NCBI RefSeq assembly: GCF_024223415.1
Contig: NZ_CP100500.1
From: Escherichia coli
Lineage (GTDB): Bacteria; Pseudomonadota; Gammaproteobacteria; Enterobacterales; Enterobacteriaceae
Length of the DNA: 64,000 nucleotides
Strand: one strand, 5' to 3'
Shown here in pieces: positions 29,339 to 46,715 of the stretch (positions within the stretch are counted from its first letter, which is position 1; every line of letters starts with the position of its first letter). The notes beneath the pieces were generated by a model, which worked only from the letters and a program-made list of their open reading frames with translations, searched no databases and was not told the DNA's origin. A program made the position numbers and the translations under genes.

Positions 29339-29414
29339 TGGTGCCGATAATAGGAGTCGAACCTACGACCTTCGCATTACGAATGCGCTGCTCTACCAAC
29401 TGAGCTATATCGGC
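29339..29414 (-). tRNA. thrW: tRNA-Thr (anticodon CGU)
   Basis: Reverse complement reads GCCGATATAGCTCAGTTGGTAGAGCAGCGCATTCGTAATGCGAAGGTCGTAGGTTCGACTCCTATTATCGGCACCA, a 76-nt cloverleaf with CGT anticodon and encoded CCA. Confidence 0.95.
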
Positions 29415-37306: not shown

Positions 37307-37864
37307 TTATCCTTCGATAAAAGCCATCCCTGTAAACGTTCGTCGCGGGTTGCCACGTTCAATCTGGTGATGGAACATTCGCCGCTGCGATTTCAGCGCC
37401 GCGCTATTTTCCTGTTGCTGCTGCTCCAGCTTCCAGGCAATCAGCAATCGCGCCAGCCGTTTGTTAGCATGCTGGCTGCGCTCTGACTGAACCTTCACGC
37501 TAATACCGGATGCCAGATGCGTGGCGCGTACCGCCGAGTCGGTTTTATTGACATGTTGACCGCCCGGCCCCGACGAACGCTGCGTCTCATACCGGATCGC
37601 ATCGGATTGCTCCTGCTCATCAGCGGTAAAACGCCCAATGCCCAGAAACCAGTTTTTGCGCCCATGATGAGGCCGATACGGACTCGGACAAATCCACTGA
37701 ATAGTGCCGCACCAACTTTCGCTTAATGCCCATGCGTTATCGCCATCCAGAGAAATCAGCGCCGAACGCAGCGTGTCAGAGTAGCGGCCCGTTTCTGTTT
37801 CCAGCACCGTTACCGCGACGTCTTGTCGGGCAAAAACGACCAACAGAGAAGAACGCTGCGCCAA
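37307..37864 (-). pseudogene. prfH: peptide chain release factor homolog RF-H, N-terminally truncated
   Basis: Contains the GGQ motif ([17 protein letters not shown]) of class I release factors but lacks the normal N-terminus. Confidence 0.7.
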
Positions 37865-38042
37865 TCGGGTAGCCGCGTCCGGGGTGTAAATCTGGCATCC
37901 CCACTACGCGCTGCATGTTGGGTAAATTTGCCGTGGTGTGTAATTGTTGGATCGCTAAACTCTCGATCCACAGGTCATCAGATGCGATGGTAAATACCGC
38001 ATCGGATAAGGGACGAATATATTTGCCCATGTACCATTCCAT
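37776..38042 (-). pseudogene. RtcB-like RNA ligase N-terminal fragment
   Basis: 88-aa ORF with [16 protein letters not shown] motif typical of the RtcB N-terminus; overlaps the prfH remnant in another frame, consistent with an internal deletion. Confidence 0.6.
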
Positions 38043-38347: not shown

Positions 38348-38800
38348 TTAATGTTGCGGTTTATATCGCATATAAAAATTAGTAAACCACGCTCCCCGGC
38401 ATTCAACGCGCTGCTGCTTAACTGTCTGAAAACCATAACGTTCAAAAAAGGGTTTTGCGGTTATGCTGGCGTCCACCGTAAGTTCGGATTCAGACTTAAT
38501 CACAGGTTTTAACAAAGCGCTGGCAACCCCACGGCGGGTGTATTCAGGGTCAACAAATAACATATCGATATAGTGTTCAACGCAGGTAATAAAGCCGACC
38601 AGTTTTGCATTAATGACTGCAACCCGCACTTGTGATTTCGCGAGTTTATCCTTCCAGCGAGATTCGTCAATCTGCGCCCAGGCGGCAATTTGTTGTGGTG
38701 AATAATGCTGACTGGCGGTCATCATAACCGCTCTAATGAAAATAGCGCATAGTTGCTGAAAATCGCCAGGCTGATAGTTTCTTATTTGTATGTTATTCAT
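38348..38800 (-). CDS. yafP: GNAT-family acetyltransferase
   Basis: 150-aa ORF; start ATG overlaps the dinB stop in an ATGA junction. Confidence 0.85.
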
Positions 38801-39852
38801 AATCCCAGCACCAGTTGTCTTTCCATTTGCGGATCCAGCAACGTCACATGCAGCCCCACCAGTCGCACACCGCGCCCGCCGCGGCGTTCATCCCAGGTTT
38901 TACGCGCGGTGGCGATTAAGTCAGCTTTATTCAGCCGCGGCCAGACGTGCTCCTGGGTGGTTTGCTGAAAATCGTCGAACTTTAATTTCACCCCCTGGCG
39001 AGCAATCAGTAAATCAGGTTTTACCTTTGCCAGACGGCGTTCAAGTTCCGGATACAGCCGCTCGATAATCGCTTCACATTCAGACCAGTGATGAATATCT
39101 TCCGCCATCGTGCGTTCCACGCCGACGGATTTTCGTAACCGTTCGCTGTTAACGTCGCGCTCGTCAATCCCCTGACTACGCTCCCACAAAATGCGGCCAA
39201 ATTTTCCAAAGCGTTTAAGCAGAATCACCAGATCACACTTTTGTACATCACCGCAGGTCCGCAGCCCCATCGCTTCCAGTTTTGCCGCCGAGACTTTGCC
39301 GACGCCGGGGATTTTTGCCAGTGGTAAGGTTTGTAAAAATGCCGGAACTTCTGCCGGCGTAATCACAAACTGGCCGTTGGGTTTATTCATGTCGGAGGCG
39401 ATTTTGGCGAGAAACTTTACTGGTGCCACGCCCGCAGACGCCGTCAGTTGCAGCTCGCTGAAAATCGTCTGGCGGATTTCCTGGGCGATGAGGGTCGCAG
39501 AACCGTGGCAATGGACGCTGTCGGTGACATCGAGATAAGCCTCATCCAGTGACAACGGCTCAATGCGAGAGGTGTAGCGCGAGAAGATTTCACGGATATG
39601 ATTTGAGGCTTCTTTGTAGGCGTCAAAGCGCCCCGGAAGCAAGGTGAGATGTGGGCATAATTTGAGCGCCATCCCTGTCGGCATAGCGCTGCGTACGCCA
39701 AATTTACGCGCGGGATAATTGGCGGTGCTGATCACCCCCCGACGTTCGCGGCTGCCGCCAATAGCAATAGGGATATCGCGCAGGGCGGGATTGTCGCGCA
39801 TCTCCACTGCGGCGAAAAAGCAGTCCATATCCACATGAATGATTTTACGCAT
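38797..39852 (-). CDS. dinB: DNA polymerase IV (Y-family translesion polymerase)
   Basis: 351-aa [23 protein letters not shown]...; a LexA box lies upstream. Confidence 0.95.
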
Positions 39853-39866
39853 TACTCACCTCTCAA

Positions 39867-39886
39867 CACTGGTAAAGTATACAGTG
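39867..39886. promoter_or_regulatory. LexA box upstream of dinB
   Basis: CACTGGTAAAGTATACAGTG, a CTG-N10-CAG SOS-box-like palindrome 15 bp upstream of the dinB start. Confidence 0.65.
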
Positions 39887-39922
39887 ATTTCAGGGTTTGA
39901 GAAATGCGTAAAGATTCAGCAT

Positions 39923-40690
39923 TTAGCGCGTTCGCTGCGAAAGCACCTGCTGCTTATCCAGCTTTTGCACCAGCGGCTGCACCACTTTATCCCCATGCTG
40001 ACCAAAGTATTGATACAGCGTATCGGACGCACTTTTGGTCAACACCATAATCTCAATACGCCGATTGCCCGCGCTTTGCGGATTTTTGGCATCCAGCAGC
40101 ATCTGGTCCGCCATTGCGCTTACCTGCATCACTTTATCTTCCGGCATTCCGGCCTCTTCCAGCACCCGACGAGCCGAAAGCGCGCGGTCACCCGAAAGGT
40201 TCCAGTTGTTGTAGATATTGTTTTTGTAGGCCATCGCATCGGTATGCCCGGTAATAATAATTTTATTATCGAGCGAGTCGAACACTGGCGCTAACTCCAC
40301 CAGCAGCGTTTTAAAGAACGGCATAATCTGCGCGCTGCCGCGTTCGAACATATTGCGATTCTGGTCGTCTTTAATCAGCACGCGTAATCCCTGCGGGACA
40401 ATCTCCATCTCCAGATTCGCTTCCATATGCGCATCACGGGCAATGGTGTTGATACTGGTTGCCAGCTCACCAAGCTCGGTGGCGGATTTCTTCTTCAGCA
40501 GCGCCGTTTTCTCGTTGACGTCGCGCGCTTTTTTCTCCGTCTCTTCCGGCACCGCCACGGTGGCAGGTTTTGGCGGATGAGACGGGCTGATTTTATTTAA
40601 CGGCGACAACCCGCCACCGTTGAAAATCGACTGCCCGTGCAGCGCGGCGATAATGCTTTCACGCTCGGATTTACTGACGCTGTTGACAAT
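39923..40690 (-). pseudogene. lafU: MotB-like stator protein remnant of a lateral flagellar (Flag-2) system
   Basis: C-terminal OmpA/MotB-like domain is intact, but the N-terminal membrane segment is replaced by read-through into the antisense of lfhA. Confidence 0.6.
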
Positions 40691-42392
40691 CAACTTTATC
40701 GTCGTCACCAAAGGGGCCGAGCGTATTTCCGAGGTTTCTGCCCGCTTTACCCTGGACGCGATGCCCGGCAAACAGATGGCGATTGACGCCGACCTTAACG
40801 CCGGGTTGATCAACCAGGCGCAGGCGCAAACCCGGCGTAAAGATGTCGCCAGCGAGGCCGATTTCTACGGCGCGATGGACGGGGCATCGAAGTTTGTGCG
40901 CGGGGATGCCATCGCCGGGATGATGATTCTGGCGATCAACCTGATCGGCGGCGTCTGTATCGGGATCTTCAAATACAACCTGAGCGCCGATGCCGCCTTC
41001 CAGCAATATGTGCTGATGACCATCGGCGACGGCCTGGTGGCGCAGATCCCTTCCCTGCTGCTCTCCACGGCGGCGGCGATTATCGTCACCCGCGTCAGCG
41101 ACAACGGCGATATCGCCCATGACGTGCGCCACCAGCTGCTGGCAAGCCCGTCGGTGCTCTACACCGCCACCGGGATCATGTTCGTGCTGGCGGTGGTGCC
41201 GGGGATGCCGCACCTGCCGTTTTTGCTGTTCAGCGCCCTGCTTGGCTTTACCGGCTGGCGGATGAGCAAACGCCCGCAGGCGGCGGAGGCGGAAGAGAAA
41301 AGCCTCGAAACGCTGACCCGCACCATCACTGAAACCAGCGAGCAACAGGTCAGTTGGGAAACCATTCCGCTGATCGAGCCCATCAGCTTAAGCCTCGGCT
41401 ACAAACTGGTGGCGCTGGTGGACAAAGCGCAGGGCAACCCGCTCACCCAGCGTATTCGCGGCGTACGGCAGGTGATATCCGACGGTAACGGCGTGCTGCT
41501 GCCGGAGATCCGCATTCGGGAAAACTTCCGCCTTAAGCCGAGCCAGTACGCCATTTTCATCAACGGTATTAAGGCTGATGAAGCGGATATTCCGGCGGAT
41601 AAACTGATGGCCCTGCCCTCCAGCGAAACCTACGGCGAGATTGACGGCGTGCTGGGGAACGACCCGGCGTACGGGATGCCGGTCACCTGGATCCAGCCCG
41701 CGCAGAAAGCGAAAGCGCTGAATATGGGGTATCAGGTGATCGACAGCGCCAGCGTGATTGCCACCCATGTGAACAAGATTGTCCGCAGCTATATTCCTGA
41801 TTTGTTTAACTATGATGACATCACGCAGTTGCATAACCGTTTGTCGTCGATGGCACCGCGCCTGGCGGAGGATTTAAGCGCGGCGCTCAATTACAGCCAA
41901 TTGCTGAAAGTGTACCGGGCGCTGCTGACCGAAGGCGTTTCCCTGCGCGATATCGTCACCATCGCCACCGTGCTGGTCGCAAGTAGCACGGTGACCAAAG
42001 ATCATATTCTGCTGGCAGCTGATGTGCGCCTGGCACTGCGGCGCAGCATTACCCATCCGTTCGTTCGCAAGCAGGAGCTGACGGTGTATACGCTGAATAA
42101 TGAGCTGGAAAATCTGCTGACCAACGTGGTGAATCAGGCGCAACAGGGCGGGAAAGTGATGCTCGACAGCGTGCCGGTCGACCCGAATATGCTCAACCAG
42201 TTCCAGAACACGATGCCGCAGGTAAAAGAGCAGATGAAAGCGGCGGGGAAAGACCCGGTGCTGCTGGTGCCGCCTCAGCTGCGCCCTTTGCTGGCGCGTT
42301 ATGCAAGGTTGTTTGCGCCGGGGCTGCATGTGCTGTCGTATAACGAAGTGCCGGATGAGCTGGAGTTGAAGATTATGGGGGCGTTGATGTAG
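40683..42392 (+). pseudogene. lfhA: FlhA-family export-gate remnant lacking the N-terminus
   Basis: Homology to FlhA starts at about residue 130 of the family (FIVVTKGAERISEVSARFTLDAMPGKQMAIDADLNAG); no proper start or promoter. Boundary approximate. Confidence 0.65.
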
Positions 42393-42605
42393 GCATGATA
42401 AGACGCGTCAGCGTCGCATCAGGCATCGGTGCATAACCGCCGGATGCGGCGTGAACGCCTTATCCGGCCTACCGTTCAGGCGCAGGTTTGTAGGCATTAT
42501 AAGATGTGCCAGCGTCGCATCAGGCATCCGCGCACAATTGCCGGATGCGGCACAAGTTTGTAGGCATGATAAGACGCGCTAGCGTCGCATCAGGCATCTG
42601 CGCAC
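42393..42605. repeat. REP/BIME array (about four REP units)
   Basis: Repeated GCCGGATGCGGCG and CAGCGTCGCATCAGGCA units in alternating orientation. Confidence 0.8.
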
Positions 42606-42607
42606 AA

Positions 42608-43105
42608 TTATAAAATGATACGCTCCCCAGCACTCAAATCCGTTATGTCTCCCGCCCAATTGATGGGATATAACCCTCGCGCGACATCGCGATGGAACGT
42701 TGAGAATGGCCAATCACTCACTTGCTTTACCCAGCCATGTTTTACTGGATTTATATAAATATAATCAACATGATGGCGATAGTTTTTGGTATTGCGGATG
42801 GTGTGCTCCCAAAAACGTGGTTGCCAGATATTTTTCAATCCACAAGCATGGGTGAACTGCTTTTTAATCTCCCGCCAGCGAGAGGAAAAATCATCATCGC
42901 TTTCGGGTAATGTCCATATGCAATGCATATGCTCCGGCAAAACTACCCAGGCATTAATTTCAAAAGGTCTGGCTCGCTTAACTTTAATAATGGCGTTACG
43001 GAGCGTCTGGTACTGGGTAGTCAAAAGTTGGCTTCGACGATTCCGTAAATTCACCGTGAAAAACCAGGTTCCCCCTTTGATGTAATACCGACGATATTCA
43101 GACAT
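42608..43105 (-). CDS. rayT: REP-associated tyrosine transposase
   Basis: 165-aa ORF recognised as a REP-associated tyrosine transposase from the translation; flanked on both sides by REP arrays. Confidence 0.85.
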   Translation of the reverse strand: MSEYRRYYIKGGTWFFTVNLRNRRSQLLTTQYQTLRNAIIKVKRARPFEINAWVVLPEHMHCIWTLPESDDDFSSRWREIKKQFTHACGLKNIWQPRFWEHTIRNTKNYRHHVDYIYINPVKHGWVKQVSDWPFSTFHRDVARGLYPINWAGDITDLSAGERIIL

Positions 43106-43184
43106 GGCGACTCCTTTTTCTCAACGGTAAGAAGAAAAGGAAAGGTCGGCAATGAGGTGATGGAATAACGGGAAAGCGGCTCGC

Positions 43185-44131
<947 letters not shown>

Positions 44132-44340: not shown

Positions 44341-44601
44341 ATGGCTGCAAATGCATTTGTTCGCGCCCGAATCGATGAAGATCTGAAGAATCAGGCGGCG
44401 GACGTACTGGCCGGGATGGGGCTGACCATCTCTGACCTGGTTCGCATAACCCTCACAAAGGTCGCGCGTGAAAAGGCATTGCCGTTTGATTTACGCGAGC
44501 CTAATCAATTAACCATTCAATCAATCAAAAACAGCGAAGCTGGCGTTGATGTTCATAAGGCCAAAGACGCCGATGATTTATTTGATAAATTAGGAATTTA
44601 A
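44341..44601 (+). CDS. dinJ: antitoxin DinJ
   Basis: 86-aa ORF immediately followed by yafQ. Confidence 0.9.
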   Translation: MAANAFVRARIDEDLKNQAADVLAGMGLTISDLVRITLTKVAREKALPFDLREPNQLTIQSIKNSEAGVDVHKAKDADDLFDKLGI

Positions 44602-44603
44602 AT

Positions 44604-44882
44604 ATGATTCAAAGGGATATTGAATACTCGGGACAATTTTCAAAGGATGTAAAACTTGCACAAAAGCGTCATAAGGATATGAATAAATTGAAATATATTA
44701 TGACGCTTCTTATCAATAATACTTTACCGCTTCCAGCTGTTTATAAAGACCACCCGCTGCAAGGTTCATGGAAAGGTTATCGCGATGCTCATGTCGAACC
44801 GGACTGGATCCTGATTTACAAACTTACCGATAAACTTTTACGATTTGAGAGAACTGGAACTCACGCGGCGCTCTTTGGGTAA
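44604..44882 (+). CDS. yafQ: toxin YafQ (RelE-family mRNA interferase)
   Basis: 92-aa ORF 2 bp after the dinJ stop. Confidence 0.9.
   Translation: MIQRDIEYSGQFSKDVKLAQKRHKDMNKLKYIMTLLINNTLPLPAVYKDHPLQGSWKGYRDAHVEPDWILIYKLTDKLLRFERTGTHAALFG

Positions 44883-46577: not shown

Positions 46578-46715
<138 letters not shown>

Follow-up and report, generated by a model that had tools for sequence, protein, structure and literature searches.

The two-gene dinB-yafP form of the SOS-regulated dinB operon in an Escherichia coli genome: very probably a deletion of yafN-yafO between short repeats

The stretch of DNA analysed here, called the window, consists of 64,000 nucleotides from Escherichia coli (RefSeq assembly GCF_024223415.1, contig NZ_CP100500.1). 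On its minus strand, dinB is directly followed by yafP. The two genes overlap: the stop codon of the first and the start codon of the second lie within one ATGA at 38797-38800, which reads TCAT on the plus strand. The TGA of dinB occupies 38797-38799 and the ATG of yafP 38798-38800, with two bases shared within the ATGA. This junction was the starting point of the original prediction, and it is indeed there. The features of the locus are as follows.

38348..38800, minus strand: yafP, GNAT-family N-acetyltransferase, 150 aa (from the open reading frame, identity to K-12 YafP and Pfam)
38797..38803, minus strand: ATTATGA, sole remaining copy of a 7-bp direct repeat, a putative deletion scar (from the overlap of query halves and the K-12 alignment)
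38797..39852, minus strand: dinB, DNA polymerase IV, 351 aa (from the open reading frame, identity to K-12 DinB and Pfam)
39867..39886, minus strand: predicted LexA (SOS) box CACTGTATACTTTACCAGTG, overlapping the -10 element (read from the sequence)
39876..39903, minus strand: promoter-like site TTCTCA-16 nt-TATACT upstream of dinB (consensus scan, 9/12 matches, a pattern match only)

Both proteins were compared with those of K-12. DinB has 99.4% amino acid identity, and Pfam finds IMS (PF00817, E=6e-51), PF11798, PF21999 and PF11799 in it, all above cut-offs, so IMS, IMS_HHH and IMS_C are all present. This is the composition of a Y-family Pol IV: an IMS catalytic domain, an HhH/thumb and a C-terminal little-finger domain. 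YafP is 92.7% identical to that of K-12. It matches PF13673 (E=3e-19) and three more GNAT models above the gathering score (Acetyltransf_10, _7, _1, _9), and has the GNAT fold with acetyl-CoA binding motif A, with RRGVAS kept in the translation. Over all loci fetched, YafP evolves much faster than DinB (mean dN 0.032 vs 0.0046), and nucleotide diversity peaks at around yafP positions 170-230.

RefSeq/PGAP calls both genes, overlapping by 4 nt as here, in strain NCTC10444, which is 100% identical over the 20 kb compared. Two plus-strand open reading frames run antisense over the junction (38753..38968 and 38790..39068). These are mechanical, found no support and were set aside. Rfam and tRNA scans returned nothing in the focal region.

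The control region upstream of dinB is that of K-12. The LexA box 20-mer and the -10 element (TATACT) are identical to those of K-12, and the promoter-like site has the same spacing to the LexA box and to the dinB ATG in both. The box fits the LexA consensus, CTG-N10-CAG. It carries one substitution in three of the other 17 sampled loci (33F4, M24, O99:H6 CU42ET-1, SCPM-O-B-8794 and E. whittamii among them). Given the match of LexA box and -10 element to K-12, SOS control of the short operon is a sound prediction from the sequence.

YafO is a ribosome-dependent mRNA interferase, and YafN is its antitoxin. Neither is found here: a tblastn search with the K-12 YafN and YafO against the whole 64-kb window gives zero matches at E<=1e-5. 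The adjacent genes that would make up a YafN-YafO type II toxin-antitoxin system, a PhdYeFM-type antitoxin and a YafO_toxin (PF13957), are absent from the window. As dinB and yafP overlap, there is also no room for yafN and yafO between them.

In K-12 MG1655, yafN (b0232) and yafO (b0233) do lie between dinB (b0231) and yafP (b0234), as the original prediction had it. There, 755 bp separate the dinB stop from the yafP start. An alignment to K-12 finds no direct dinB-yafP junction in that strain, and the description of the window as the shorter form of the operon stands: yafN and yafO are present in K-12 and absent here.

The K-12 spacer of 51 bp between the dinB stop and yafN (L001:3455-3505) begins TGTATACTATTATGTATATT, where the repeat TGTATA occurs twice. 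Its role may be that of a YafN operator or of an internal promoter region. The short form is without this spacer.

The prediction had also called for a survey of the junction across strains. A query of 200 bp centred on the junction was compared with 5,426 complete E. coli genomes and matches 5,414 of them. The junction is contiguous in 2,569 of the 5,426 (47%). In the others the query is split over two places, with ranges 1-102 and 96-200, so that the halves overlap by 7 bases. The K-12 yafNO cassette was found in 2,847 of the 5,426 genomes (52%), nearly always as a single copy. Since 2,569 and 2,847 add up to 5,416, against 5,414 genomes with matching flanks, the short and long states are essentially exclusive and cover the whole species. 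The short form is thus common in E. coli and not special to this strain.

The lineage of the window is itself uncommon. Only 10 records have at least 99% identity to the window over 20 kb, and only five genomes reach 100.0% (SCU-316, AR_0085, NCTC10444, GPEC1446 and NCTC9112). We take ST57 and ST350 to be phylogroup E. According to the literature, NCTC10444 is ST57 and NCTC9112 is ST350.

The two-gene allele is not new. It was published in 2011, with the dinB-yafP ATGA fusion described by Gutierrez et al. (NAR 39:4192, PMC3105422), and it is a common, roughly 50:50 polymorphism of the species. That work found dinB and yafP alone in 40% of 98 sequenced E. coli and Shigella genomes and in 50% of ECOR strains, and verified the junction in the ECOR collection by PCR and sequencing (PMC3105422). 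By phylogroup, nearly all A strains had four genes, all B1 strains had two, and both forms occurred in B2 and D, while E. fergusonii had four genes (PMC3105422). The authors thought it likeliest that yafN and yafO were lost independently three times or more, through recombination between two copies of ATGA (PMC3105422). In a survey from 2023, YafO was of low prevalence in phylogroups C, B1 and G, as well as in ST131 and ST73 (PMC10790755).

The 7-base overlap of the split query halves, at query 96-102, corresponds to window 38803-38797. It is a direct repeat, ATTATGA, which flanks the yafN-yafO cassette. In K-12 the copies are at the dinB end (GGGATTATGA) and at the yafP start (ATATTATGAATAAC), one holding the dinB stop codon and the other the yafP start codon. 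Each of the nine long-form loci read has the two copies, those of E. whittamii and another non-coli Escherichia included. Going by these sequences, the repeat available for deletion is 7 bp, rather than the published 4 bp ATGA. The short allele would then have come about by loss of the 755-bp yafN-yafO cassette between the two copies of ATTATGA.

The junction sequence GGGATTATGAATAACAT is identical in 10 of 10 short-form sequences: the window, NCTC10444, seven other E. coli and one other Escherichia species. Deletion between the ATTATGA copies always gives the same ATGA junction, and independent events are therefore indistinguishable there.

A third form of the operon was also found. In Escherichia sp. 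E1V33 the order is dinB-yafN-yafP (L003:3124-3501). Here yafO has been removed between TTAT microhomologies, and the antitoxin gene yafN is left as an orphan together with 8 codons of yafO. This loss means that small microhomology deletions do occur in the yafNO cassette.

The direction of change can be approached through an outgroup. A search for YafO homologues yielded one of 85% identity on a gut-metagenome scaffold (ERZ28584503, here L022). The gene order of L022 is nqr-dinB-yafN-yafO-yafP-pepD-gpt-frsA. DNA identity between L022 and K-12 is 0.80 for dinB, 0.79 for yafN, 0.77 for yafO and 0.85 for pepD, and the synonymous sites of dinB, yafN and yafO are near saturation. The cassette has thus diverged in parallel with its neighbours, and its place between dinB and yafP therefore predates the genus Escherichia. 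The ends of the L022 cassette are TTGTGA and TCATGA, and there is no 7-bp repeat. Hence the cassette did not leave the repeat behind as a target-site duplication.

At the protein level, the YafP of L022 is 52% identical to that of K-12 and the DinB 91.5%. In this outgroup nqrE/F/M lie immediately upstream of dinB-yafN-yafO-yafP-pepD, and there are no Flag-2 or rtcB/prfH genes. Another outgroup search, using YafP peptide patterns in genome contigs, listed as matches four Escherichia loci and an unrelated Thalassoglobus GNAT. This search missed E. fergusonii, E. albertii and E. marmotae.

Four genes are also present in E. whittamii and in another non-coli Escherichia. Together these comparisons support the four-gene form as ancestral and the two-gene form as a deletion, which fits the published view. 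In this particular lineage the event would have run in the same direction. Taken as a whole, the best reading, and a very probable one, is that the window has the familiar two-gene form of this SOS-regulated operon, derived from an ancestral four-gene form by deletion of the yafN-yafO cassette at the repeats.

How often this happened is a different matter. The short allele could have arisen once or a few times and spread to this lineage by homologous recombination, with long alleles likewise re-imported, which would make it an old, shuffled polymorphism. This is a serious possibility, if on the whole a somewhat doubtful one. All short forms carry one junction. The dinB and yafP trees conflict, and each mixes both forms: with neighbour-joining, each gene and also the 600 bp surrounding the junction give a tree in which the two forms are completely interleaved. 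The flanks of the window are mosaic, in that the nearest strain differs by segment. The cassette seems to coalesce more recently than its flanks, as detailed below, and both states also occur in non-coli Escherichia.

The shared junction is however no proof of a single origin, given that the fixed 7-bp repeats always yield the same one, and Gutierrez et al. arrived at multiple losses (PMC3105422). One pair of strains is also hard to fit with an imported tract. The flank haplotype common to M24 (short) and MS8345 (long) is strongly diverged. Over the final 300 bp of dinB the two strains are identical, over the initial 300 bp of yafP they differ at 3 sites, and variants specific to the haplotype or lineage start no more than 36 bp from the junction. 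By its sequence, this pair speaks for a gain or loss that took place locally, on one haplotype. For the window, no recent loss from an O157-like allele is claimed, since its flanks were compared with O157:H7 and proved not specially close in haplotype.

The cassette itself has surprisingly little synonymous diversity. The values below are for nine long-form loci. The dS and diversity analysis draws on 8-9 long-form haplotypes (L001, L005, L006 and L014-L019) and is uncorrected for recombination.

dinB: mean dS 0.187, nucleotide diversity 0.045
yafN: mean dS 0.109, nucleotide diversity 0.029
yafO: mean dS 0.042, nucleotide diversity 0.0175
yafP: mean dS 0.135, nucleotide diversity 0.052

Within Escherichia, the synonymous diversity of yafO is about four-fold below that of the flanks. 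Between K-12 and E. whittamii, yafO has 3 synonymous differences in 84 sites, versus 75 in 345 for the flanks (Fisher p=2.6e-5). For MS8345 and E. whittamii, the comparison of yafN plus yafO with the flanks gives p=2.8e-9. Overall, E. coli and E. whittamii are 99% identical in yafO and 94% in the flanks, and the stretch of low divergence has sharp boundaries at the ends of the cassette. Intrinsic constraint on the synonymous sites of yafO is unlikely, because these sites are saturated versus the distant outgroup L022.

From these figures, coalescence within Escherichia appears to be more recent for the cassette than for its flanks. This points to gene flow between lineages, or to the cassette having been re-acquired, and is offered as a lead and not as a result. 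Beyond plain keeping or losing, some lineages may have regained or exchanged the cassette by recombination. An extended reading would have yafN-yafO as a discrete unit bounded by ATTATGA, removed time and again by microhomology deletion and regained or passed on among lineages and even species. This is put forward tentatively, as rather less likely than not. If true, the allele in the window would be one state of a dynamically maintained presence/absence polymorphism of a toxin-antitoxin pair inside an SOS operon. A cassette that is ancestral yet coalesces young could interest those working on toxin-antitoxin population dynamics, and here it rests on 8-9 haplotypes.

Plasmid carriage of the cassette was looked at and rejected. 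In the plasmid collection, close matches to the K-12 cassette DNA and the YafO protein are only laboratory F-primes with the dinB region, or 'plasmid' records that are chromosome-sized or error-ridden. CP044307 and CP044308 were left out. For some 140 kb each they have 42 and 35 annotated features, and their identities of 94% and 80% are probably due to sequencing error.

It is very unlikely that the change went the other way, with the two-gene form ancestral, yafN-yafO inserted at ATTATGA as a mobile cassette that duplicated its target, and the window never having held it. A perfect 7-bp direct repeat bracketing the cassette in every long-form Escherichia locus is what such an insertion might leave, but in L022 the cassette occupies exactly that site, is diverged to the same degree as dinB, and lacks the repeat. 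The GC content of the cassette (0.42-0.44) is below that of dinB (0.54), but that of yafP is equally low (0.43), and the cassette does not stand out by composition. Synonymous divergence within Escherichia is far lower in the cassette than in the flanks, and the YafO family does move, with homologues (69%) in Klebsiella in unrelated island or ICE-like contexts. Against this, no transposase, integrase or attC-like site is present, and E. whittamii, E. fergusonii (PMC3105422) and a further Escherichia species have four genes.

Finally, that the junction is an assembly or sequencing artefact which collapsed the 7-bp repeat can be practically dismissed: nothing speaks for it beyond the presence of a short repeat, while 2,569 complete genomes, all independent, share the junction, PCR and sequencing bore it out in ECOR (PMC3105422), and five genomes match the window at 100% along 20 kb.

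Given a deletion of yafN-yafO from the ancestral four-gene operon, some consequences for expression can be proposed. The LexA-repressed dinB promoter, intact in the window, would read through dinB and yafP. As the genes overlap, there is no terminator between them, and transcription from the dinB promoter would run on into yafP. Scans for terminators and promoters between and after dinB and yafP gave counts no higher than in shuffled sequence and bring in nothing beyond the dinB promoter.

YafP would be made by termination-reinitiation: ribosomes ending dinB at the UGA restart at the AUG one base upstream. Such coupling is the most likely route to YafP, as judged from the start site. Only a weak Shine-Dalgarno-like GGGA precedes the yafP AUG. 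At two bases upstream, its spacing is too close. The yafP AUG of K-12, 9 nt past the yafO stop, has no recognisable Shine-Dalgarno sequence, and the dependence of yafP on upstream translation probably holds there too.

It has been stated that YafP synthesis 'probably requires translational frameshifting' (PMC3105422). In our opinion this is an imprecise term for coupling, since coupling at an ATGA needs no frameshift. Phenotypes of a yafP deletion have been measured in CFT073, which was chosen for its two-gene operon (PMC3105422). From the overlap and these CFT073 phenotypes we infer that dinB and yafP are co-transcribed and that YafP is expressed.

In the strain, SOS control would thus extend to Pol IV and the acetyltransferase YafP, with YafO and YafN missing. 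This makes the two-gene allele relevant to annotation and physiology. Results on yafNO in K-12, such as SOS toxin-mediated translation arrest and effects on stress-induced mutagenesis, are not transferable to two-gene strains.

A dinJ-yafQ toxin-antitoxin pair lies at 44341-44882 on the plus strand, per the annotation of the identical NCTC10444, and the strain without YafNO therefore keeps the region's other toxin-antitoxin module. Downstream of yafP, remnants of rtcB-prfH occupy 37307-38030 on the minus strand: a 204-bp RtcB fragment (37827-38030) and an N-terminally truncated prfH (37307-37813). Other strains, both short-form and long-form, have intact rtcB (1,140 bp) and prfH (615 bp) at this site.

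On the other side of dinB there is a deletion scar of Flag-2 (lateral flagella) at 39923-42392, where lafU (39923-40708, minus strand) abuts an N-terminally truncated flhA-like pseudogene (40674-42392, plus strand). In several other short-form strains motA-lafU is intact, and the Flag-2 and yafNO states assort independently. Four copies of the naRNA4 (REP325-type) repeat (42392-43382, and 46634-46711 on the minus strand) flank rayT (42608-43105).

Further away, tRNA-Thr(CGU) is at 29339-29414 on the minus strand, by proA. It is directly followed by a few regulator and oxidoreductase genes, and then by pao, ecp and ykgMO (1-29300). No prophage was seen at this tRNA in window positions 1-29300. 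In K-12, we take the CP4-6 prophage to be integrated at this tRNA-Thr.

The additions over the literature are the balance of 47% short to 52% long in 5,426 genomes, the 7-bp repeat, the variant in which only yafO is deleted, the four-gene outgroup and the low synonymous diversity of the cassette.

Among known systems, the closest is the operon of the uropathogenic strain CFT073 and of about half of the ECOR strains: an ATGA-fused dinB-yafP, no yafN or yafO, and the SOS promoter upstream. CFT073 was compared by its published description (PMC3105422), and nothing substantial is different. The window does come from an uncommon lineage, with a mosaic flank haplotype.

K-12 MG1655 has the operon at the same chromosomal position (lafU ... 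dinB ... yafP ... rtcB'/prfH' ... pepD). The rtcB-prfH remnants of the window resemble ykfJ/prfH' of K-12, and its Flag-2 scar is as in lfhA'/lafU'. K-12 differs by the 755-bp yafN-yafO insert, bracketed by the ATTATGA repeats, and by the yafP ATG, which comes 9 nt after the yafO stop in K-12 and overlaps the dinB stop in the window.

More generally, the junction resembles the translationally coupled ATGA gene pairs of bacterial operons, which have the same overlap and orientation. The 4-nt ATGA is the commonest class of overlap in E. coli, according to sources cited in PMC3105422. Unlike anciently co-evolved ATGA pairs, the overlap in the window would be a secondary junction, which came from the deletion of two intervening genes.
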